Shown: positions 5,077 to 24,025, counted from the stretch's first letter. The stretch is 64,000 bases of DNA from Patescibacteria group bacterium (GCA_041660605.1 JBAZWB010000003.1:18680-82679), one strand, 5' to 3'. Notes: generated by a model not told the origin, from the sequence alone. A program made the numbers and translations.

Positions 5077-6174
5077 ATGAACATAGCTTTCTACATTTCC
5101 GGACACGGTTACGGACACGCGACGCGGATGCTCGCCGTGATGAATGCTTTGCTGGAACGCGACCCGCACTGCCGTTTTTTTATCCGCACCGCCTCTCCGC
5201 GGAAATTATTCAATGGCCTGCCAGCCGGCATCGCGCGATATTCCCGGATGGCCATTGATACCGGCATGATTGAAAAGGATAATTTTTCCCAGGACCCGCT
5301 GGCCACGCTGCGGCATTACCAAAAAATCGAAGACAACCGGCAGCAGCTGATAAAAAACGAATCTGCCTTTATATTATCCCGGCAGGTCAAGGTAATCGTC
5401 AGCGACATTCCGCCTCTGGCTTCGGAAATCGGCTCTGCCTGCGGCATTCCCGTCATCGGCTGCGCGAACTTTTCCTGGGACTTCAATTATCAGCCTTACG
5501 CACGCCAGTACCCAAGGTATTCCCATTTAATAAAAAGCATCCGGGCTTCATATAGGAAGACGACTCTGCTGCTTCGCCTGCCATTCCACCACTCCATGGA
5601 CGCCTTTCCTGTCCAAAAGGATATTCCCCTGGTCGCCCGACAGTCGGCAGCCAGCCCCGTTAAAACGCGTCTCCGCCTGGGCATTTCAAAATCAGAAAAA
5701 AGGCCGGTAATTTTAGTCGCCTTCCGGATTGACGACCAGTTATTCCGCCGGGCGCTGGTGGAGCTTACGAAAAATAACGACTGCCTGATTATCACTTACG
5801 GCCTGCGCTCGTTGCGGAAATATAAAAATATTATAGTTATTAATGACAGTCGGAAAGCCGTGCCATACACCGATATTCTCCGGGCTTGCACGCTGGTTAT
5901 TGCCAAGATCGGGTACAGCACGCTGGCAGAGTGCATCGCCGCCAGGGTGCCGCTGATGTATCCTCCGCGCGAAAATTATCCGGAATTCAAGCTTCTACAT
6001 AATGGTGCAAAAAAAAGCCTGCCTTCATATCTTATGCCCAAACGGGATTTTGCCTCAGGCAAATGGCGCCGGCACATAGACAAATTCCTTGCTCAGCCGA
6101 TTTCATTTCCCTCGATGCCGGCTAACGGCGCCCGGGTCGCCGCTGAAATAATTTTGCGTCACGCTAGCAAATAA
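5077..6174 (+). CDS. GT-B fold glycosyltransferase (MJ1255/TIGR00661-like, GT28 C-terminal-like).
   Basis: N-terminus ISGHGYGHATR is characteristic of this family. About 365 aa. Higher GC than surroundings. Confidence 0.55.
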   Translation: MNIAFYISGHGYGHATRMLAVMNALLERDPHCRFFIRTASPRKLFNGLPAGIARYSRMAIDTGMIEKDNFSQDPLATLRHYQKIEDNRQQLIKNESAFILSRQVKVIVSDIPPLASEIGSACGIPVIGCANFSWDFNYQPYARQYPRYSHLIKSIRASYRKTTLLLRLPFHHSMDAFPVQKDIPLVARQSAASPVKTRLRLGISKSEKRPVILVAFRIDDQLFRRALVELTKNNDCLIITYGLRSLRKYKNIIVINDSRKAVPYTDILRACTLVIAKIGYSTLAECIAARVPLMYPPRENYPEFKLLHNGAKKSLPSYLMPKRDFASGKWRRHIDKFLAQPISFPSMPANGARVAAEIILRHASK

Positions 6175-6180
6175 AACCCC

Positions 6181-6240
6181 ATCGCGGGTCCCCGCCTGCC
6201 TTGCCAGTGCGGCGGGCAGGTCTGCGCCCGCGTTCGCGCC
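6181..6240. repeat. GC-rich structured repeat, copy A (CCCCGCCTGC ... TGCGGCGGGCAGGTCTGCGCCCGCG).
   Basis: The 25-nt core is identical to copy C at about 18125-18149. Hairpin GCGGGC/GCCCGC. Confidence 0.7.
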
Positions 6241-6288
6241 AATAAAACGCACACACACCGCAAAACGGGGCGGTTTTTACTGTAATAA

Positions 6289-6318
6289 AAACGGACAAGT
6301 ATTGAAACCTGTCCGCTG
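6289..6318 (-). terminator. Terminator for hutU on the minus strand.
   Basis: On the minus strand: CGGACAGG-tttcaatac-TTGTCCG followed by TTTTTATT. Confidence 0.45.
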
Positions 6319-6355
6319 TGTTTAGTAATGCTTTTGGGTTACTTAGGCGCAACCG

Positions 6356-8404
6356 TCAAGCAATAGATGCATCGACCGCTTTGCTGACGACATCGTCATC
6401 AGCGATAAAGGGAATCATAACCTGGAGTCTGGCGTCGTCATCCATGGATTCCGTAATGGCCCAGATGGCATTGGGATTTCCGGCCCACGCGCGGCGAGCC
6501 AGCCCGTTGTTCACGTCAATTGCCATCAGGCGCTTGATGCGTTCAGCCACCTCCACGGAACCATCCAGCGCGATGCCGAATCCGCCGTTAATAGCGTAAT
6601 TGAAGCCAACCCCGCCGCCGTTGTGTATGCTTACCCAGTCAGCGTGCGCAGTCGCGTCGCCAATGAAATTCTGCACTGACATGTCGGCGCACACGTTGCT
6701 GCCGTCCAGAACATTGGACGTTTCGCGGTACTTAGAATCAGTGCCGCCCACATCATGGTGATCCCTGCCGATCACCACCGGTCCGATCTCCCCGCTGGCA
6801 ACAGCCCGGTTGAAGGCGAGCGCAATGCGCGTCCGGCCGACACGGTCGCTATAGAGAATCCGCGCCTGACTACCGACGACAAGTCCGTATTTGCCGGCAT
6901 TTTCGATCCAGTAAAGATTGTCCTCATACTGCTGCCGTATCTGCAGAGGAGCTCTCACAAGCAACTCCCGGATAACGTCAGCGGCAATCTCGTCAGTCTT
7001 CTCGAGATCCTTAGGATCTCCGCTCAGGCACACCCAGCGGAACGGGCCGAAACCGAAGTCAAAGCAGATCGGTCCCATAAGATCCTCAACGTACGACGGA
7101 TACCTGAACCTGGTATCATCGGCCATGATATCGGCTCCCGCATTTCTTGCCTGGAGCAGGAAACCGTTGCCGTAGTCAAAGAATTTCGTCCCGCGTTCAG
7201 CCATGGCGTTGATGGCGCGAACGTGTTCCCGCAGTGATTCCCGGACAAGCTCCGTGAAACGTCCTGCATCGGACTTGATCATCTGGAGCGCATCCTCAAA
7301 GCTGATCTGGAACGGGAAATACCCGCCGGCGAACGGCAAGTTTAGAGAAGTCTGGTCAGACGCGAGATCAACCTGGATATCCTCAGTGATGAGGCGATTC
7401 CACAGATCAACGATGTTCCCATGGTACGCGATTGAGAGCGGCTGCTTTTCAGCAATCGCACTTTTCATGGCAAAGATTATGGCATCAAGGCTATCGGAAT
7501 ATGAATCAATCCAGCCTTTTTCAATGCGTTTCTTGATCGCCTTCAGATTCACCTCGGCGATGACGCAGACAATGCCTAGTATCTGCGCTGCCTTGCCCTG
7601 GGCGCCCGACATGCCGCCAAGCCCCGAGCTGACGAAAACTCGACCACGCAGATCCTTCATGTCCGTGATTCTGTAATACTCACGGAAGGCGTTGAGCAGT
7701 GTGATATAGGTGCCGTGCACGATTCCCTGCGACCCGATGTACATCGCGCTGCCTGCCGTCATTTGGCCGTACAGGGTCACGCCTTTCGCGGCGAGATTGT
7801 CATAGTCAGCTTCAAGCGGCGCAGACATAAGCCCGTTCACGATCACGGCGATCGGATCAAAACCTCTGCGCGCCGGGAACTTGCCGAGCGGATGGCCGGA
7901 ATACAGCTTAAGCATCTGATCACGGTCTAAGGTAGCGAGCGCCTGCATAGTGATCAGGTATTGCACCCAATTCTGGAACACGGTACCGGTACCGCCGTAA
8001 GTGACCAGTTCGTCCGGGTACTGCGCGTTCTGCGGATCAAGGTTGTTCATATACATGAGCTGCAGGGCGCGTGCCGCCAGCGTATTACCGGGGTACCAGT
8101 CGATCGGATACGCCATGATGGGATACGCCGGTTTGAACCGGTACATGTAGATGCGTCCGAAAACTCTCAGTTCGGTCGCAAACTCAGAAGCGAGAATCGC
8201 GTGCCACTCCTTGGGAAAATAACGGAGCGCATTTTTGACCGCCTGTTTTTTCTCCTTGGTTGTCAGGGTGTTTGGCCGGGCAGGTGCATGGATAGCGTTC
8301 ATGTCGTACACCGGCGTCGGTGGAAGCTCACGCGGAATTCCTGCAAGGATAGCTGTTCTCAGCCTATTCTTGTCCATTGCTTGTGCCATCTGATTTTCCT
8401 CCAT
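6356..8404 (-). CDS. hutU: Urocanate hydratase (urocanase), long form of about 680 aa.
   Basis: Full-length match to urocanase: MTAGS-x-YIGSQGIVHGTY, SSGLGGMSGAQ and GGGVGF NAD-binding motifs. About 50% GC against a ~40% background. Confidence 0.9.
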   Translation of the reverse strand: MEENQMAQAMDKNRLRTAILAGIPRELPPTPVYDMNAIHAPARPNTLTTKEKKQAVKNALRYFPKEWHAILASEFATELRVFGRIYMYRFKPAYPIMAYPIDWYPGNTLAARALQLMYMNNLDPQNAQYPDELVTYGGTGTVFQNWVQYLITMQALATLDRDQMLKLYSGHPLGKFPARRGFDPIAVIVNGLMSAPLEADYDNLAAKGVTLYGQMTAGSAMYIGSQGIVHGTYITLLNAFREYYRITDMKDLRGRVFVSSGLGGMSGAQGKAAQILGIVCVIAEVNLKAIKKRIEKGWIDSYSDSLDAIIFAMKSAIAEKQPLSIAYHGNIVDLWNRLITEDIQVDLASDQTSLNLPFAGGYFPFQISFEDALQMIKSDAGRFTELVRESLREHVRAINAMAERGTKFFDYGNGFLLQARNAGADIMADDTRFRYPSYVEDLMGPICFDFGFGPFRWVCLSGDPKDLEKTDEIAADVIRELLVRAPLQIRQQYEDNLYWIENAGKYGLVVGSQARILYSDRVGRTRIALAFNRAVASGEIGPVVIGRDHHDVGGTDSKYRETSNVLDGSNVCADMSVQNFIGDATAHADWVSIHNGGGVGFNYAINGGFGIALDGSVEVAERIKRLMAIDVNNGLARRAWAGNPNAIWAITESMDDDARLQVMIPFIADDDVVSKAVDASIA

Positions 8405-16122: not shown

Positions 16123-16623
16123 ATTTAGGTGATTACGGGGTATTTAAAAGTATACCAGAAAACGAAACCAATTCGTGCAAGCTGATTGGAGAGAAATAAA
16201 TTATTAGACAATATCAGAACCCCATGTGCATATCAGCCCTTGACAAAAAGGCCGTTTTGGAATATACTATCCTGTTACTTTAGTAATACTCAAAATTCTG
16301 CCTAAATTTCGGCTGAAGAGAGAGCAGCCGGAAAGCCAGATATTTAGCCTTTACCCGCCGCTCTCTTTCAGAGGGCAGTTTTTTCTGATTTTACAGCTAA
16401 TGCAATTTCAGACCTAAACGTAGAATCCGTCGTAGTCCGTCACAGGCGGACGAAGGCGGATAAATGTATGCTTGTTTGGCTGTTGCCGGCAATTACCTTG
16501 CTGATAGCAGCCAGATTGGCAAAAAAACATTAACAAAACACTGTATGCTGGGACGGTCAAAAACCGCCAGTCTGGTAGTCCAAAACAGCAACAGTGAAAC
16601 AATTTATTACGGAGGTTTGTGTA

Positions 16624-17886
16624 ATGAAACACAAACTAGCATTACTCGTCATGGTCGCCCTGGCATTCTTTGCCACCGGCGCCGGCTCACAGTACGTCGC
16701 GGCAGTGCCCACGCCTGCGGACAGTTCCTATTTGGAACAGTTCGTGGGAAAGCCTTACAGCGTGAACCAATCACGTGTTTGGCTAGACATCTGTGCGTTG
16801 AATCGGGACAGGTTTCCGGACTCTAACAAGGTACAGCCCGGCGATACCATCCGCATGCCGTTGGGGAAAACCTACGTGGCGCAGTCTGGAGCCGCTGACC
16901 ACATGTGGACAGCATCAGTATCATTTATGGGATCAGAAGTGATGCCATATTTGATGGGTTTTTGGTCGTATACTCATGCGGCGAAGCCGGACACACAGCC
17001 CAACGCGCCAAAAACTACCACCACGGTAGTTCAGGCAACCAATTACGGTTGGTGGTGCTGGCAAATAGTTGGTCTGATTATCGTCGGTGGTATCATTATC
17101 GCCATCCTACTGCTGAATAGAAATCGCAAGCGGAATGAAGAGTCAGCGAAAAGTGCTAGTGAACAACTGGAACGCAACCGTCGGTTCGTGCCTGATCCGC
17201 CTGACTTCGAACACAGCCAAGAACGCGTTGTCGCCGCCCATGCGGAGGACGCACTCCGGCGTACACTCGGACCTAACTTCAAGAGAGTTGGTCCAGTAGT
17301 GAAGGGTAAGGCTAACGGAACCCTCACAGCGATAAATGCCGACGGTACCACTCAGACGCAGCAGTTCAACGATGAGCTGGCATATGCAATGGACGTCGAG
17401 GGACCGGATGGCACTCGTTTCAGACTTTTCTGTCGGTGGGGGTGTTTCAATCTAGTCGCTGGTAGCGTCGGCGCTTCATTCGTCGGCACATTCAGCCCAA
17501 TTGACGGTAGCACCCCGATGATAGTTCCTGCCATGACTTCTGAACTAATCGATAAGATCACTCAGAAAGTCAGGGGCGATGACATCGAACTTAGCGCAGC
17601 TGAGTTCCCTGGCGCTGTCACGGCAGAAGTCACGCCGACTATCGTTACTCCGGTAAAGACCGCTGCTGACGCCATAGTTACGGATAAGCCTAAATCTGAC
17701 GGGATCATGCGCTTCACCAAAGTGCAGCTTTCAGCAGAGAAGGGCATTAACTTGGAGGGGGATGATATCTGCCTTTCAGTTGACCAACTGTTTGAGCTAG
17801 TTTATCAGGTAACTGGGAGGCTTCCAAAAGAAGTAAAGCAGGCCAAGGACGCCACCGCGTCAGATCCTGCCCATCCTGACGATTAA
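16624..17886 (+). CDS. Signal-peptide protein with a LysM-like extracellular segment, a central TM helix and a long cytoplasmic tail.
   Basis: SD GGAGG 7 nt upstream of the ATG at 16624 (the GTG at 16594 is less likely). QPGDTIRMPLGKTY is LysM-like. About 55% GC. Confidence 0.5.
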   Translation: MKHKLALLVMVALAFFATGAGSQYVAAVPTPADSSYLEQFVGKPYSVNQSRVWLDICALNRDRFPDSNKVQPGDTIRMPLGKTYVAQSGAADHMWTASVSFMGSEVMPYLMGFWSYTHAAKPDTQPNAPKTTTTVVQATNYGWWCWQIVGLIIVGGIIIAILLLNRNRKRNEESAKSASEQLERNRRFVPDPPDFEHSQERVVAAHAEDALRRTLGPNFKRVGPVVKGKANGTLTAINADGTTQTQQFNDELAYAMDVEGPDGTRFRLFCRWGCFNLVAGSVGASFVGTFSPIDGSTPMIVPAMTSELIDKITQKVRGDDIELSAAEFPGAVTAEVTPTIVTPVKTAADAIVTDKPKSDGIMRFTKVQLSAEKGINLEGDDICLSVDQLFELVYQVTGRLPKEVKQAKDATASDPAHPDD

Positions 17887-19839: not shown

Positions 19840-20598
19840 ATGAAAAAAAGATATTATGTACCAATTATCTGCATCCCATTACTTATTATTTTTTTATATA
19901 TCCTTTATACCTTTTTCCCGACGGAATTTCTGATAAAGAGATCCCCTGAATCAGCTACGGCCGCCGAGCGTTCCGGGTATTCACCCAATATTTCCACATT
20001 TAACTGGGTGCATCTGATAGCCAATACATATGACGGAAACTATCTGGTGGTCAGGAACTTGGAGCAATACAGGCAGGCCGCTGGCTTCAGGGCATTCCCG
20101 GATGGCGGGATCCCCTATTATTTAATCAATAAAGATGATCTTTTACTGGTCGGAAGTGCGGGAAATGTCATCTGGCAAAGAAGCTATATTAATAGCGTGG
20201 CACCAAATTATCAGTACCAATCAAAATACACAACCAAGGATCTCAAAATCTCCACTGCCAATGATCTTCCTGCATTGCTGAAAGGTGAAATTCTTGCAGT
20301 AATCCGCTGGTGCTCGCCAAATATAATGCAAATTGCCGCCTTTAATCGCACCCCCGGCGTGGCTGCGCAGTTCATCCACCCGGCGGTAGAAATTAATACT
20401 TCAGACGGCTCCTTGAGAACATTCAATAATCCCGAGGAGCTGTGCGATGATGCCCTTCCGCCAAACGGCAGTACTCCAAAAAAGTACCAATGCAATAAAC
20501 ACATTAATAATTTCGTATTCGCCTCCGGATTGCCGGCACCAAACGAAATACTGGTGATGGACCAAAAAATATGCAGTGGCTTGCAAAAAATATTTTAG
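19840..20598 (+). CDS. Membrane-anchored secreted hypothetical protein.
   Basis: N-terminal TM anchor. No motif recognised. Confidence 0.4.
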   Translation: MKKRYYVPIICIPLLIIFLYILYTFFPTEFLIKRSPESATAAERSGYSPNISTFNWVHLIANTYDGNYLVVRNLEQYRQAAGFRAFPDGGIPYYLINKDDLLLVGSAGNVIWQRSYINSVAPNYQYQSKYTTKDLKISTANDLPALLKGEILAVIRWCSPNIMQIAAFNRTPGVAAQFIHPAVEINTSDGSLRTFNNPEELCDDALPPNGSTPKKYQCNKHINNFVFASGLPAPNEILVMDQKICSGLQKIF

Positions 20599-20670
20599 GG
20601 CAAGAAATGCTCTGAATTGCCATTTGATTGCCTCCACACTCCATAAAAAAATAAAATATATATTTTACCT

Positions 20671-20865
20671 ATGAACGGCAATAATCGAGACGACATTTAC
20701 CCGGGACTCCGGGTCGCCATCGTCCTGAAGCAGGACCAGCGCACCGGAAAACTGACCGAAGGCGTAGTTCAGGATATTTTAACCAATTCCCCCAACCATC
20801 CGCATGGCATAAAAGTGCGGCTCCAAACCGGCGAGGTTGGCCGGGTGCAGGAAATCTTAGCCTAA
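20671..20865 (+). CDS. YwbE family protein (DUF2196).
   Basis: Near full-length match to the YwbE pattern: GLRVAIVLKQDQRTGKLTEGVVQDILTNSPNHPHGIKVRLQTGEVGRVQ. Confidence 0.7.
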   Translation: MNGNNRDDIYPGLRVAIVLKQDQRTGKLTEGVVQDILTNSPNHPHGIKVRLQTGEVGRVQEILA

Positions 20866-20867
20866 AA

Positions 20868-20907
20868 ACCCCACTGGGAGAAAACATGCCTGGTGGGTAT
20901 TTTTTGT
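20868..20907 (+). terminator. Rho-independent terminator.
   Basis: CCCCACTGGG..CCTGGTGGG followed by TATTTTTTG. Confidence 0.45.
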
Positions 20908-21124
20908 ATTGGCGTAACAAGATTAAGCTTCATCCGATTAAGTAATTGCATGGCTGTAAAATTAGCCTGTTTTAAATTGCTAATATCATATAAAAAAGGC
21001 TATATTATGCGAATTGAGCTTAAAAATAATTCACTGGCAATTATCTAATACTAGCCTACTAATTAACAGCGGAAACGGTAAGGAACCATTCTCCGTTTTT
21101 TTACTGTTTACCCAGCAAATAATT

Positions 21125-22381
21125 ATGAAACGAATAAAATCAATACTATCAAATATCCGCCCGCTTTCGGATAAAGTGCTGGAGCTGACTTTAGTCAGGA
21201 AAAACGGCGCGCCTTTTCCCGAATTCCTGCCCGGGCAATTCGCCACCATTTGCTTCCCCGCCCACTCCCCGCTGAAAGGCGAGCGGTGCTTTTCCATCGC
21301 CAGCTCATCTACCGACCGCCTGGCTATGAAATTCGGCATCCGGATTTCCGGCGCCTACACCAGCGCCCTGCGCGATCTGAAGCCGGGAGACCAGGCGCTA
21401 GTCGGAGGCCCATATGGGCGTTTTACTTTTGATCCCGTACGCGACCGCTCCCTCGTCTTTCTGGCCGGCGGCATCGGTATCACGCCATTTATCAGCATGA
21501 TAAAAACCGCGGCCGACCTTAATCTGGATAACGACCTGACTCTTTTTTACAGTCTCCGCTCCCTTTCGGACATGCCTTATGGCGCGGAACTGGAACGGCT
21601 GAGTAATATGTACCCGCGGTTCCGCGCGGTTTACGCTGTTTCTGATAAAAATATTCCCAAACATCTGCCTGAATATCATCCCGGCCGCCTGAACCGCGAA
21701 TTAATCGTAAAAGTTATGACTGACAGGATCTGGCGGAGCACTTTTTTTCTCTGCGGTCCGCCGCCTTTCATGAAAACAATGAACCAGACTCTGCTCTCGC
21801 TGGGAGTCGCGCCGGAATTTATTATGAGCGAAAAATTCGGAGCCGGATCCAAGGCTTTTATTGAGCGGGGCACCCGGGTGCCGGCTTTTGCCTTTGCCGG
21901 ATGGGGCATTGCCTCGGTCATTGCCTTGGGAATCTTTTTCAGTATTGAGCAATCAAAACGACTGTCACTGGCCTATCATCCGCCAGAGCAACTAAGCCCG
22001 GTAGTGCGGAATATCCCCACGGAAATAGCCGTACCTGGACAGCCAAATCCGCCGGCAACGGAAACAGCCGAAGTGCCGCAGCCAACCGCCATGCCAACTG
22101 CTGAAAATAATAACAAACCAGCGACCCAAACCAGCGCGCCCAAACCCGCGCCAGCGCAAAAAACGGCCACGCCCGTGCCCCAGGCAAAAACTGCCGCGCC
22201 AATAAACGTCAATAAGGCAGCTCCGGCACCCGCTCCTGCGTCTGCGCCAGTTACGCCCCCTCCTGCACCAGTAAACACTGCGCCAGCCGCAACTCCGGCA
22301 CCAACGCCGGCTCCCAAACCAACTCCCGCTCCAGCTCCCGCGCCTGCACCGGCTCCTGCCCCTCGCACAGCAGTTTCCTAA
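21125..22381 (+). CDS. FNR-type FAD/NAD(P)-binding oxidoreductase with a C-terminal TM anchor and an extracytoplasmic Pro/Ala/Thr-rich repeat tail.
   Basis: RCFSIASS (the RxYS FAD motif), GGIGITPF (NAD-binding), CGPPPFM (C-terminal FNR motif). These are followed by a TM helix and (PA)n/PAPT repeats. Confidence 0.65.
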   Translation: MKRIKSILSNIRPLSDKVLELTLVRKNGAPFPEFLPGQFATICFPAHSPLKGERCFSIASSSTDRLAMKFGIRISGAYTSALRDLKPGDQALVGGPYGRFTFDPVRDRSLVFLAGGIGITPFISMIKTAADLNLDNDLTLFYSLRSLSDMPYGAELERLSNMYPRFRAVYAVSDKNIPKHLPEYHPGRLNRELIVKVMTDRIWRSTFFLCGPPPFMKTMNQTLLSLGVAPEFIMSEKFGAGSKAFIERGTRVPAFAFAGWGIASVIALGIFFSIEQSKRLSLAYHPPEQLSPVVRNIPTEIAVPGQPNPPATETAEVPQPTAMPTAENNNKPATQTSAPKPAPAQKTATPVPQAKTAAPINVNKAAPAPAPASAPVTPPPAPVNTAPAATPAPTPAPKPTPAPAPAPAPAPAPRTAVS

Positions 22382-22412
22382 AATTATTTGCCTTAAATAT
22401 CCAAAACAACCC

Positions 22413-23456
22413 ATGAAAAAATATTATTTATTCTCCACATTAATTCTGATTTTTTTAACCGTTGTGCCAATTCGCGCTTTGGCAGAAACAGAAGAATCTG
22501 ATGCAGAGGAACAATCATCCCAGGCAATAAATAATGAATCTGACAGCCAACCCGCTCCTGATGTTAACGATTCAAATGAACCCGCGCCGGTAATTGCACC
22601 AACCCAAGAAACCGCACCTGCCCCCCTGCCAGCGACAAAGGTTGCCCCGCCAGTCCCTGCCAAACAACCAGCTGCCGTGCAAAAAAATAACAACAAAACC
22701 GCCGGTACCGTAAACACCAGCAAGCCCGCACCGGTAAAAGCCGCGCCTGCCCCTGCTTATTCTGCGACAGCCTATGCGACCGAACCAAACCCTGCGCCGG
22801 ATAAAGCGGCGACAGCGGGAATTACCACCATCGCCCTGGTACCTCATACTTTCAATCCCACCCAGATACAAAAACGCCTGACTGATTTCCCCTGGGCCTG
22901 GGTAACCACCCGGGCGGCCGCTACAGTCTCATTTATAATGCTGGCTTTGCTGACCATGACGGGTATTTCTCTGTCCACCGGGCTGCTTTATCGGATATTT
23001 TCGCCGGCTACAGGCTGGTCCGTCCACCGCGCTATCGGCTCCATCCTGCTGATTTCCGTGCTGGTGCATATTTTTTCCCTGCTCTTTGACCAATTCATCG
23101 GCATGAACCTGCTTGATATTCTCGTGCCATTTGCCTCTTCATATCAGCCATTACTAGTCTCATTGGGAATTGTTGGTTTTTATCTTCTGGCGCTGATCCT
23201 CGGTACCTCATTTTATAAAATGGCCACCAAGGCAAAATTCTGGCGGAGAATCCATTACCTCTCCTTCCCCATGTTCGCGCTGATTTTCATTCACAGTATT
23301 TTGCTCGGCACGGATAGCCACCAGCCCCTGATGCAGGCTCTATACTGGGGCTCGGCTGTGCTGGTTATGGGATTTGTTATTTACCGGATTGCCTGGAAAT
23401 TTTACCGTCCGGCAACCGACTATTCCTACCAAAAACGCGAAACAATTTTCGGTTGA
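22413..23456 (+). CDS. Ferric-reductase-like (NOX/FRE/MsrQ-type) bis-heme transmembrane domain protein with a signal peptide and an N-terminal Pro/Ala-rich region.
   Basis: Six TM helices. His pairs are spaced H-x13-H (HRAIGSILLISVLVH) and H-x12-H (HYLSFPMFALIFIH), as in the NOX/ferric-reductase heme ligands. Confidence 0.65.
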   Translation: MKKYYLFSTLILIFLTVVPIRALAETEESDAEEQSSQAINNESDSQPAPDVNDSNEPAPVIAPTQETAPAPLPATKVAPPVPAKQPAAVQKNNNKTAGTVNTSKPAPVKAAPAPAYSATAYATEPNPAPDKAATAGITTIALVPHTFNPTQIQKRLTDFPWAWVTTRAAATVSFIMLALLTMTGISLSTGLLYRIFSPATGWSVHRAIGSILLISVLVHIFSLLFDQFIGMNLLDILVPFASSYQPLLVSLGIVGFYLLALILGTSFYKMATKAKFWRRIHYLSFPMFALIFIHSILLGTDSHQPLMQALYWGSAVLVMGFVIYRIAWKFYRPATDYSYQKRETIFG

Positions 23457-23605: not shown

Positions 23606-24025
23606 TTATTTCTTTTCCACGTTTCTCCAAGCTTCGGCAAAACACAGAATAATGCCGGCGTAGGTGCCATTTTGCTGGTTAATTGAGTAGCGTACCGCGC
23701 GAGTTTCGATATCACCTATCACTAACCTGAAATAGCTGAAGTTCTGATCGGATGGTCCGAGCTCATTCTGCCGTTTGGTCGCCCAGGCTTTGGCATATTC
23801 CAGGTCTTTGTCAGCGACATAGGATATCTTCTGACCGGGAAAAATTAAATCCGCGTGTCTAATCTCATTCAGAGCCGCAAGGTCAGCCACTGAATGCCCA
23901 GTCTTTTTGGCTATACCGGTAAGGTTGTCACCGACCTTAACAATGTACTCAGCGCCGAACGTGGTCGCTGACAATATAACCATGACGGCTAAGCAAGCAA
24001 CCACTGCAGTTGACAATCTTCTCAT
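23606..24025 (-). CDS. Secreted LysM domain protein.
   Basis: Signal peptide and the LysM motif YIVKVGDNLTGIAKKTGHSVADLAALN. Confidence 0.65.
   Translation of the reverse strand: MRRLSTAVVACLAVMVILSATTFGAEYIVKVGDNLTGIAKKTGHSVADLAALNEIRHADLIFPGQKISYVADKDLEYAKAWATKRQNELGPSDQNFSYFRLVIGDIETRAVRYSINQQNGTYAGIILCFAEAWRNVEKK

Follow-up and report, generated by a model that had tools for sequence, protein, structure and literature searches.

Two adjacent genes were analysed on the plus strand of a 64,000-nucleotide stretch of Patescibacteria DNA (GCA_041660605.1, JBAZWB010000003.1:18680-82679; the whole stretch is referred to as the window). Gene A (21125..22381; 418 aa plus stop) encodes a membrane-anchored FNR-type NAD(P)H:flavin dehydrogenase subunit, as judged from its open reading frame (ORF) and from Pfam, NCBIfam and PDB comparisons. 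Gene B (22413..23456; an ORF of 347 aa plus stop) encodes a membrane cytochrome subunit with a bis-heme ferric-reductase domain (FRD). The two ORFs are separated by 31 nt. An earlier note on this DNA had described the pair as a split electron-transfer module of the NADPH oxidase (NOX) or ferric reductase kind. It is reported here that the pair belongs to a wider, essentially undescribed ApbE-FRD module, of which it is a member without ApbE, and that A and B are probably the subunits of a single membrane complex through which electrons from cytoplasmic NAD(P)H leave the cell. All features of A and B described below lie on the plus strand.

The reductase subunit and the cytochrome subunit

The ATG at 21125 was taken as the start of A by agreement with the N-termini of homologues; the mechanically called ORF opens at a TTG at 21014. 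In the cytoplasmic FAD/NAD(P)H-binding domain (aa 1-241, 21125..21847, limits taken from the Pfam and NCBIfam alignments), the dehydrogenase signature announced in the earlier note was located in full: RCFS at aa 54-57 (21284-21295), GGIGITPF at aa 115-122 (21467-21490) and CGPPPFM at aa 210-216 (21752-21772). The aromatic residue at the C-terminal end of the domain is F238, in SEKF. Protein A matched the Pfam models NAD_binding_1 (PF00175; 49.6 bits, cut-off 22, 7e-13) and NAD_binding_6 (23.4 bits, cut-off 22.2) and scored slightly below the cut-off for FAD_binding_6 (PF00970; 20.1 against 21.1 bits), with the RCFS motif present. Its first 240 residues aligned end to end with the reductase modules of flavohaemoglobin (Hmp), BenC, MmoC and NqrF in NCBIfam, where the matches to the Hmp, BenC and NqrF modules are partial. 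A sequence search of the PDB with A gave NqrF (2.5e-17) and flavohaemoglobin as the best matches, with SpNOX at about 1e-8. By its match to the NAD(P)-binding domain and its GxGxxP motif, A belongs to the FNR-like flavoenzymes.

The domain is followed by a single transmembrane (TM) helix (aa 252-274, VPAFAFAGWGIASVIALGIFFSI; 21878..21946; hydropathy 2.04). Nearly all members of the A family have a TM helix at the matching position, and among 45 members the N-terminal flank of the helix is the richer in K/R in 25 and the C-terminal flank in 6. The helix is predicted to be N-in/C-out, which would place the rest of the protein outside the cell. This remainder is a Pro/Ala/Thr-rich low-complexity tail (aa 275-411, 21947..22357, delimited by composition) that is predicted to be extracytoplasmic; the 144 residues after the helix are about 27% Pro and 23% Ala and end in PRTAVS. 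Hydropathy and composition thus agree with the helix and the Pro/Ala-rich tail that the earlier note had read in this ORF. DNA tandem repeats were considered as the origin of the (PA)n tract and were rejected, only weak 12-14-nt arrays being detected. Homologues of A number 66, mostly from Patescibacteria, and about 45 of them, from Kerfeldbacteria, Falkowbacteria, Saccharibacteria and unclassified Patescibacteria, share one architecture, in which the FNR domain is followed by a TM helix at about aa 254-272 and then by a low-complexity tail.

Neither A nor B is preceded by a purine run resembling a Shine-Dalgarno sequence (21100-21124, ...caaataattATG; 22382-22412, ...aaaacaacccATG). No upstream RNA of Rfam, such as an FMN riboswitch, was found in the window at gathering thresholds or in 20550-21200 at E<=1, and a scan for promoters and terminators gave counts no higher than chance would yield (8 where 5.4 were expected, and 7 where 4.8 were expected).

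Protein B starts with a signal peptide or first TM helix (TM1; aa 1-24, MKKYY...VVPIRALA; 22413..22484; hydropathy 2.2), with K-K at the N-terminus and A-x-A before E25. A P-x-R-x-x-A motif is conserved in the c-region of this segment in B and in the FRDs of the same clade (class 1) at the related loci L001, L003, L005, L013 and L017 (for example, VVPIRALA, LLPLRLQA and FLPVRLYA). Since Arg at this place is unusual for a cleaved Sec signal, the N-terminal helix of B may stay in the membrane as TM1. An acidic patch (aa 25-56, 22485..22580; 11 D/E in 32 residues), predicted to be extracytoplasmic, and a Pro/Ala-rich linker (aa 57-150, 22581..22862) follow, both delimited by composition. A Glu-rich patch after the signal peptide is present in most class-1 FRDs, and TSP3 Ca-binding repeats take its place in the FRDs of L018 and P0234. 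The linker is missing or very short in L012 and P0005 and is therefore dispensable for the core function of B-type proteins. The heme-binding TM domain proper (aa 161-331, 22893..23405) consists of five helices in the structure model. The signal peptide and the Pro/Ala stretch proposed earlier for this gene were thus recovered, whereas the proposed six-helix domain was not: five helices follow the linker, and the sixth is the signal peptide or TM1. As for the low-complexity tracts said to match on the two proteins, both are predicted to be extracytoplasmic, but neither sequence nor composition is conserved; only the presence of the tracts and their terminal motifs is kept among relatives.

The predicted heme-ligand residues of B were mapped to H205 (23025-23027), H219 (23067-23069), H281 (23253-23255) and H294 (23292-23294). 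The pairs H205/H219 and H281/H294 show the x13 and x12 spacings noted before, the two members of each pair being on the same modelled helix. An alignment of 100 sequences of the FRD family has only eight invariant columns, four of them the heme-ligand His, and B keeps every family-invariant residue, including the four His, R167, G184, G252 and G299. At the position of T265, at the cytoplasmic end of TM4, 99 of the 100 sequences have Ser or Thr. A further motif, G-[TS]-D at aa 299-301 (23307-23315), five residues after the outer-heme ligand H294, is 99-100% conserved in the family, fused members included, and is missing from more distant fused bFRE proteins.

Protein B itself scored 22.3 bits against the Pfam Ferric_reduct model (PF01794; cut-off 28), aligning over positions 3-120 of 121. 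Among 16 FRD-family members, 12 match PF01794 at E<=0.01 (best 3.1e-7), and a profile search of 1.84 billion cluster representatives retrieved 5953 members of the family at E<=1e-3 and 837 at E<=1e-30. Because its relatives match PF01794, the profile family is large and the His residues are invariant, B is regarded as an FRD-type bis-heme protein. A model of the TM domain built from 100 sequences had SpNOX and csNOX5 as its nearest solved structures in Foldseek, and by this model B has the NOX-type TM fold; a model of full-length B from a 10-sequence alignment was poor (pLDDT 60.9) and gave nothing meaningful in a Foldseek search of the PDB. The cytoplasmic side of B is marked by two K/R-rich segments, the loop at aa 266-279 and the C-terminus. 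These charges put H205/H281 near the cytoplasm, H219/H294 near the outside, and the N-terminal acidic and Pro/Ala-rich tract outside the cell. Other members of the FRD family are fused to one of three kinds of NAD(P)H reductase module (FAD_6/8+NAD_1, flavodoxin+FAD_1+NAD_1 or Fer2+Pyr_redox_2), and it follows that the FRD is fed by a cytoplasmic reductase.

The nearest structures, together with a His spacing that is the NOX/FRE pattern, also suit a two-piece bacterial NADPH oxidase with O2 as the acceptor and superoxide or H2O2 as the product, and SpNOX does reduce O2 in vitro (PMC11564096). However, nothing in the sequences of A and B points to O2, and the authors of the SpNOX study leave open whether O2 is the physiological acceptor and suggest a protein instead (PMC11564096). 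Moreover, ApbE, the tethered tips and the acidic or metal-binding patches described below would have no role in a simple oxidase, and many of the source samples appear, judged by sample names only, to be groundwater or sediment metagenomes. An oxidase is thus distinctly improbable, and the production of reactive oxygen species that the earlier note had offered as one function gained no specific support.

Conservation of the pair and its usual partner ApbE

Loci of relatives came from look-ups of exact proteins, from GTDB species genomes scanned with an alignment of 9 closer sequences, and from JGI metagenomes that were also scanned. Another 12 distinct loci (L001, L003, L005, L006, L007, L008, L013, L014, L017, L018, L023 and L029) have a gene for a TM-anchored FNR protein upstream of the FRD gene on the same strand. 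The pairing is thus kept over several lineages (Kerfeldbacteria, Falkowbacteria, Saccharibacteria and unclassified Patescibacteria), with identities to the window proteins of 33-52% for the FNR and 37-60% for the FRD. The two-gene arrangement of the window was identical on an ENA-assembled contig of 184,930 bp and on a Logan assembly of a different run; since these independent assemblies agree, it is no assembly artefact. In addition, B is 100% identical to a protein of an NCBI metagenome-assembled genome labelled 'Patescibacteria group bacterium'.

Conservation of this kind bears on whether A and B belong together at all. If they were unrelated neighbours, A would be a free-standing tethered flavin reductase and B would receive electrons from quinol or another donor. 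In favour of this view, many FRD members, such as those of L020, L021, L031, L034, L040 and L043, lack a nearby FNR gene. Nevertheless, the order FNR to FRD, same-strand and tightly spaced, recurs in 13 loci over deep divergence, the helix and tail of the FNR protein match the small tail proteins that accompany ApbE-FRD pairs, and the FRD family has repeatedly been fused to NAD(P)H reductase modules. To our knowledge, Patescibacteria also generally lack quinone biosynthesis. It is hardly conceivable, then, that the two genes are neighbours by chance.

Between the FNR and FRD genes of all 12 loci lies apbE, which encodes FAD:protein FMN transferase (PF02424; E of about 1e-44 to 1e-56). The association extends to the wider FRD family: of 29 loci that could be evaluated, 27 have apbE as the gene immediately upstream of the FRD gene. 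These include loci without an FNR gene (L020, L021, L031, L034, L040 and L042-L045) and loci with reductase-fused FRDs (the P0234 locus and L048); L048 consists of ApbE and an FRD fusion and has no adjoining tip protein. In most loci, the upstream gene ends about 3-30 nt before the ApbE start codon or overlaps it. All of the relatives' ApbEs lack a signal peptide or lipobox, the Pfam domain beginning at residue 10-35. The module is therefore normally a three- or four-gene cluster with ApbE between FNR and FRD, to which the window is an exception: tblastn with three cluster ApbEs found no apbE in the 64-kb window (best E 0.77). The only other ApbE-less locus among the 29 is L046 (L046:971-2407), where a secreted protein with an acidic/His tail and a small tip protein (...SVSVTQTGSS) come immediately before the FRD and the 2 kb upstream contain no ApbE.

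The missing apbE could mean that the window pair is a decaying remnant, disabled by the loss and turning into pseudogenes. Besides the near-universal presence of ApbE elsewhere, the best 120 hits of a database search with a cluster ApbE included no close relative on a contig as long as that of the window (184,930 bp). That decay occurs in the family is shown by an FRD fragment at L019:6018-6335 (the same as L038), which covers only the C-terminal ~105 aa of a class-1 FRD without a start codon, has no FNR or ApbE gene nearby and lies on a Patescibacteria contig of 222-496 kb; this fragment is probably a pseudogene remnant of the module. Against decay of the window copy, however, both ORFs are full length and retain the invariant residues and the FNR cofactor motifs, the terminal PRTAVS is intact, the second ApbE-less cluster, L046, has intact genes, and the apbE search covered the 64-kb window, not the other ~120 kb of the contig nor the rest of the genome. 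The pair has kept PRTAVS, T265 and all invariant residues although no apbE is linked to it, which speaks for continued function, and decay is accordingly regarded as unlikely.

Several related loci showed peculiarities of their own. L018 (CAYNGY010000003.1), labelled 'uncultured Gammaproteobacteria bacterium', carries a complete class-1 FNR-ApbE-FRD cluster of the type found in the candidate phyla radiation (CPR), with the tip RPRTGQS and an FRD in which TSP3-like Asp-rich repeats replace the Glu-rich patch; its label could reflect a mislabelled bin or horizontal transfer. At L021:324-5025, a PepSY-like secreted protein with an acidic end, a small tip protein and an FRD are encoded in two tandem copies that share a single ApbE.

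C-terminal tips and candidate targets of ApbE

The tails of the FNR proteins vary in length and composition among relatives, and only the terminal tip is conserved in sequence. In A, tail comparison delimits this tip as APRTAVS-COOH (22358..22378), and all 13 distinct FNR tails of the window clade end in P-R-T-x-x-S-COOH. About 30 Saccharibacteria FNR proteins end instead in C-[TKQS]-T-x-x-S-G-V-x-x-C. A third group has T-S-A-S-G-[AV]-T inside the tail and an acidic run (DDDDD) at its end, and the loci of this group encode a separate small TM-anchored protein ending in PTTK[VA]S. The C-terminal 70 aa of P0049, an FNR protein of the Saccharibacteria type, contain an internal APRTTVS upstream of a terminal CTTSQSGVTTCV loop, so that two tip types can share one tail.

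Comparable ends occur in clusters without an FNR gene, where small TM-anchored proteins end in VTKTKTS, VTTTQSS, VTQTGSS, KPRTRSS or NTRSSK and the adjoining secreted protein ends in an acidic/His-rich run. The helix and tail of A resemble these small proteins in having a TM helix with a shared Trp, a low-complexity linker and a related C-terminal tip. By this comparison, the tail of the window FNR corresponds to a small tip protein fused to the reductase, and the N-terminal acidic patch of B corresponds to the acidic tail of the separate secreted protein in non-CPR clusters. Outside the cluster proteins, the tip motif was found in none of the 2308 ORFs scanned; a general sorting signal for secreted proteins was therefore rejected as an explanation of the tip.

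The constant presence of ApbE raises the question of its target. The ApbE recognition motif D-x-x-[ST]-G-A-[ST] works as a seven-residue tag that is most effective at a terminus of the protein and can do without its Asp (PMC12052999), and natural unstructured C-terminal extensions carrying flavinylation motifs exist on FMN_red proteins (PMC11334425). The tails of sister clades resemble such tags, with SGAT or SGVT near or at the C-terminus. In contrast, the motif is absent from A and B, the window tip PRTAVS is off-consensus and does not match it, no flavin-binding domain adjoins the tip, and the tips are predicted to be extracellular, whereas the cognate ApbEs carry no export signal. A canonical flavinylation motif in the FRD was also sought and rejected: the family has two columns with about 99% Ser/Thr (B265 and B300), neither in a G-A context.

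The puzzle is that the partner found most constantly with the cytochrome, ApbE, is cytoplasmic, whereas the tips that are its candidate acceptors are predicted to lie outside. It is possible that the tip is flavinylated before the extreme C-terminus is translocated, which the terminal position of the motif would fit. Possibly the FRD itself is the target of ApbE, on the cytoplasmic face at T265, a reading suggested by the alignment and by L048, which has no tip protein. ApbE may also have some other role.

If the first of these possibilities were followed to its end, the terminal tips would be natural, domain-free ApbE acceptor sites, namely P-R-T-x-x-S-COOH in the window clade, C-x-T-x-x-S-G-V-T-x-C in Saccharibacteria and T-S-A-S-G-A-T in Falkowbacteria-like members. 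A signal-peptide-less cytoplasmic ApbE would load a single FMN, phosphoester-linked to Thr, before translocation of the C-terminus, and the flavin, at the end of a disordered tether of 60-330 residues beside the cytochrome, would carry electrons back and forth between the outer heme and distant acceptors such as metal on the acidic tether, the cell wall or a host surface. This proposal is doubtful. If true, it would represent a new 'flavin-on-a-rope' form of extracellular electron transfer in the CPR, and if T265 of the FRD were flavinylated instead, the protein would be a covalent flavocytochrome.

Proposed electron transfer and relation to described systems

Taken as two subunits of one complex, A and B would work as follows. 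Protein A would bind NAD(P)H and FAD in the cytoplasm, and its TM helix, which starts about 13 residues past the flavin-covering F238, would hold the FAD face against the membrane under the inner heme of B. Electrons would then pass one at a time from FAD to the inner heme (H205/H281), from there to the outer heme (H219/H294), and on to an extracytoplasmic acceptor. The domain identities, the His geometry, the fold, the conserved pairing and the lack of apbE in the window are established by the analysis, and the contact between A and B, the direction of electron flow and the topology of the tails are inferred. The two-component transmembrane electron shuttle of the earlier note is supported, and none of the outcomes that the note had named as refuting it was obtained. 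Most likely, the complex reduces a metal bound at the cell surface, for which Fe(III) is the obvious choice, or some other acceptor outside the cell; any closer identification of the acceptor, or of the role of the tip, is speculative. A role in metal metabolism is weakly pointed to by the acidic/His-rich or Ca-binding tethers, by Zip and Iron_permease genes near two relatives, and by the published link of MsrQ-like and PepSY-like ApbE clusters to iron assimilation (Méheust et al., PMC8238504).

As to its origin, the pair is probably a lineage-specific derivative of a widespread module with an ApbE-FRD core. This module would usually have two extras, a tethered hydroxyl-rich C-terminal tip, here placed on the end of A, and a tethered acidic patch resembling a metal-binding site, here placed on the start of B. 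Patescibacteria would have added the TM-anchored FNR as a dedicated electron input, and apbE would have been lost from the cluster in the window genome.

Several points weigh against this interpretation. The Ferric_reduct score of B lies under the Pfam cut-off (22.3 vs 28 bits), and the Foldseek E-values are weak (0.04-0.2). The FNR domain is nearer to NqrF, Hmp and BenC than to NOX dehydrogenase domains, and its docking onto the FRD therefore cannot simply copy NOX structures. Flanking genes vary among relatives, so that the acceptor is unconstrained, and no metal transporter gene adjoins the pair in the window. Finally, if flavinylation is essential, the window copy, lacking the near-universal ApbE, may be crippled; alternatively, it may depend on an apbE in the remaining ~120 kb of the contig or the rest of the genome, which lie beyond the 64 kb searched.

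Because the module of the relatives includes ApbE, the nearest described systems are the ApbE-associated 'MsrQ-like' ones (Méheust et al. 2021, eLife, PMC8238504; Huang et al. 2024, mSystems, PMC11334425). The window pair is best read as derived, with loss of ApbE, from a so far undescribed form of these flavinylation-associated systems. Shared with them are a PF01794-type cytochrome with six TM helices and two heme sites that is clustered with apbE in relatives, an FNR-type NAD(P)H-binding input, and a proposed extracytosolic reduction, linked to iron in some cases. MsrQ-like systems, however, usually (1437 of 1797 clusters) carry the NAD-binding domain as a C-terminal fusion to the cytochrome, include a separate protein with an FMN-binding domain and occur mainly in Actinobacteria (PMC8238504). 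Here, the FNR is encoded by a separate upstream gene and brings a TM helix and tail with it, the proteins scanned, including A and B, gave no FMN_bind match, the ApbEs of the relatives lack signal peptides, and the window has no apbE altogether. By its operational definition, an MsrQ-like system has an ApbE or FMN_bind gene no more than five genes away from a PF01794 gene, and one or more of these carries a signal peptide or lipobox (PMC8238504); with no ApbE in the 64 kb and no FMN_bind on A or B, the window falls outside it. The same survey kept only clusters with an export signal on the ApbE or flavin-binding gene and reported the CPR as strikingly under-represented (PMC8238504). As such a signal was required, CPR clusters of the present kind would have been filtered out.

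Escherichia coli MsrQ with Fre, termed a 'two-component NOX-like system' (PMC8238504), is similar in that an FRD protein is fed by a separate FNR-family reductase. In the present pair, the reductase is membrane-anchored and encoded next to the cytochrome, whose four heme-ligand His are invariant. Fre, in contrast, is a soluble protein, and its gene is not linked to msrQ. MsrQ is described as having a b-type heme plus FMN and passes electrons to periplasmic MsrP (PMC12525009). By analogy, B might feed a specific extracytoplasmic partner protein, MsrP-like or another reductase. MsrQ-Fre is a precedent for a split FRD system (PMC12525009, PMC8238504), the exposed outer heme of SpNOX led its authors to propose a protein acceptor (PMC11564096), and the conserved tips and patches could be docking elements. 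Yet no MsrP-like or Oxidored_molyb-type gene was found within 10 kb on either side of the pair, which is thus not an MsrPQ system, nor was a molybdoenzyme or other candidate reductase found over this distance in the window or within 4-5 kb in six relatives. Flanking genes are unconserved, and the four heme-ligand His of B differ from the single b-type heme plus FMN of MsrQ (PMC12525009). A dedicated partner protein of this type is considered improbable, and the reading of A and B as a complex serving a surface-bound metal or other extracellular acceptor is preferred.

In SpNOX, csNOX5 and the 'long bFRE' proteins (Zhang et al. 2013, PMC3591440), one polypeptide carries everything, with the dehydrogenase C-terminal to TM6. 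The present pair consists of two genes whose order is the reverse of this, and its dehydrogenase precedes a TM helix; A and B, as separate polypeptides, are not NOX proper, in which FRD and dehydrogenase are joined in one chain. The earlier description of a split module stands as far as two separate genes are concerned, but simple gene fission of a fused NOX was rejected, the gene order being reversed and A carrying its own TM helix. Taken alone, B is an FRD-only protein of the 'short bFRE' category, which is defined by domain content only; a term search of the text of that paper met no discussion of operons or gene neighbours (PMC3591440). In full-text literature searches, neither an FNR partner with a TM anchor and a tail nor the tip motifs were found described, in line with the earlier note, which did not recognize the arrangement as a described system.

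A LysM protein is encoded on the minus strand at 23606-24025 (Pfam LysM, 2.7e-11), convergently and just downstream, as previously noted. It is not conserved and is missing from all of the relatives' loci, and it was therefore rejected as a part of the system. The block at 6001-8404 has a GC content of 0.551 against about 0.41-0.50 elsewhere and contains, at 6356-8404 on the minus strand, a 682-aa urocanase ORF with all three urocanase domains and an N-terminal extension of ~95 aa; this block may have been acquired horizontally. A 430-aa ORF at 16594-17886 has an N-terminus resembling a signal peptide and an internal TM helix, with no significant Pfam match (DUF4381 at E 0.043 only).

Patescibacteria are thought to have almost no respiratory or redox machinery. 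The module described here would provide a conserved, self-contained route for NAD(P)H electrons out of CPR cells, present in at least Kerfeldbacteria, Falkowbacteria and Saccharibacteria, and could bear on iron acquisition by episymbionts, on the disposal of reducing equivalents and on interaction with hosts. The A-B pair itself is a modest architectural variant of FRD-based, flavin-associated transmembrane electron transfer, and its split architecture offers a natural two-piece model for the docking of a dehydrogenase onto an FRD cytochrome. The wider family numbers about 6,000 cluster representatives, its partner in almost every case being an ApbE that lacks a signal peptide, and it poses the question of what a cytoplasmic flavin transferase modifies in a transmembrane cytochrome system. 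This puzzle, which joins such an ApbE with domain-free terminal motifs on long tethers and with presence in the CPR, is specific, widespread and testable.

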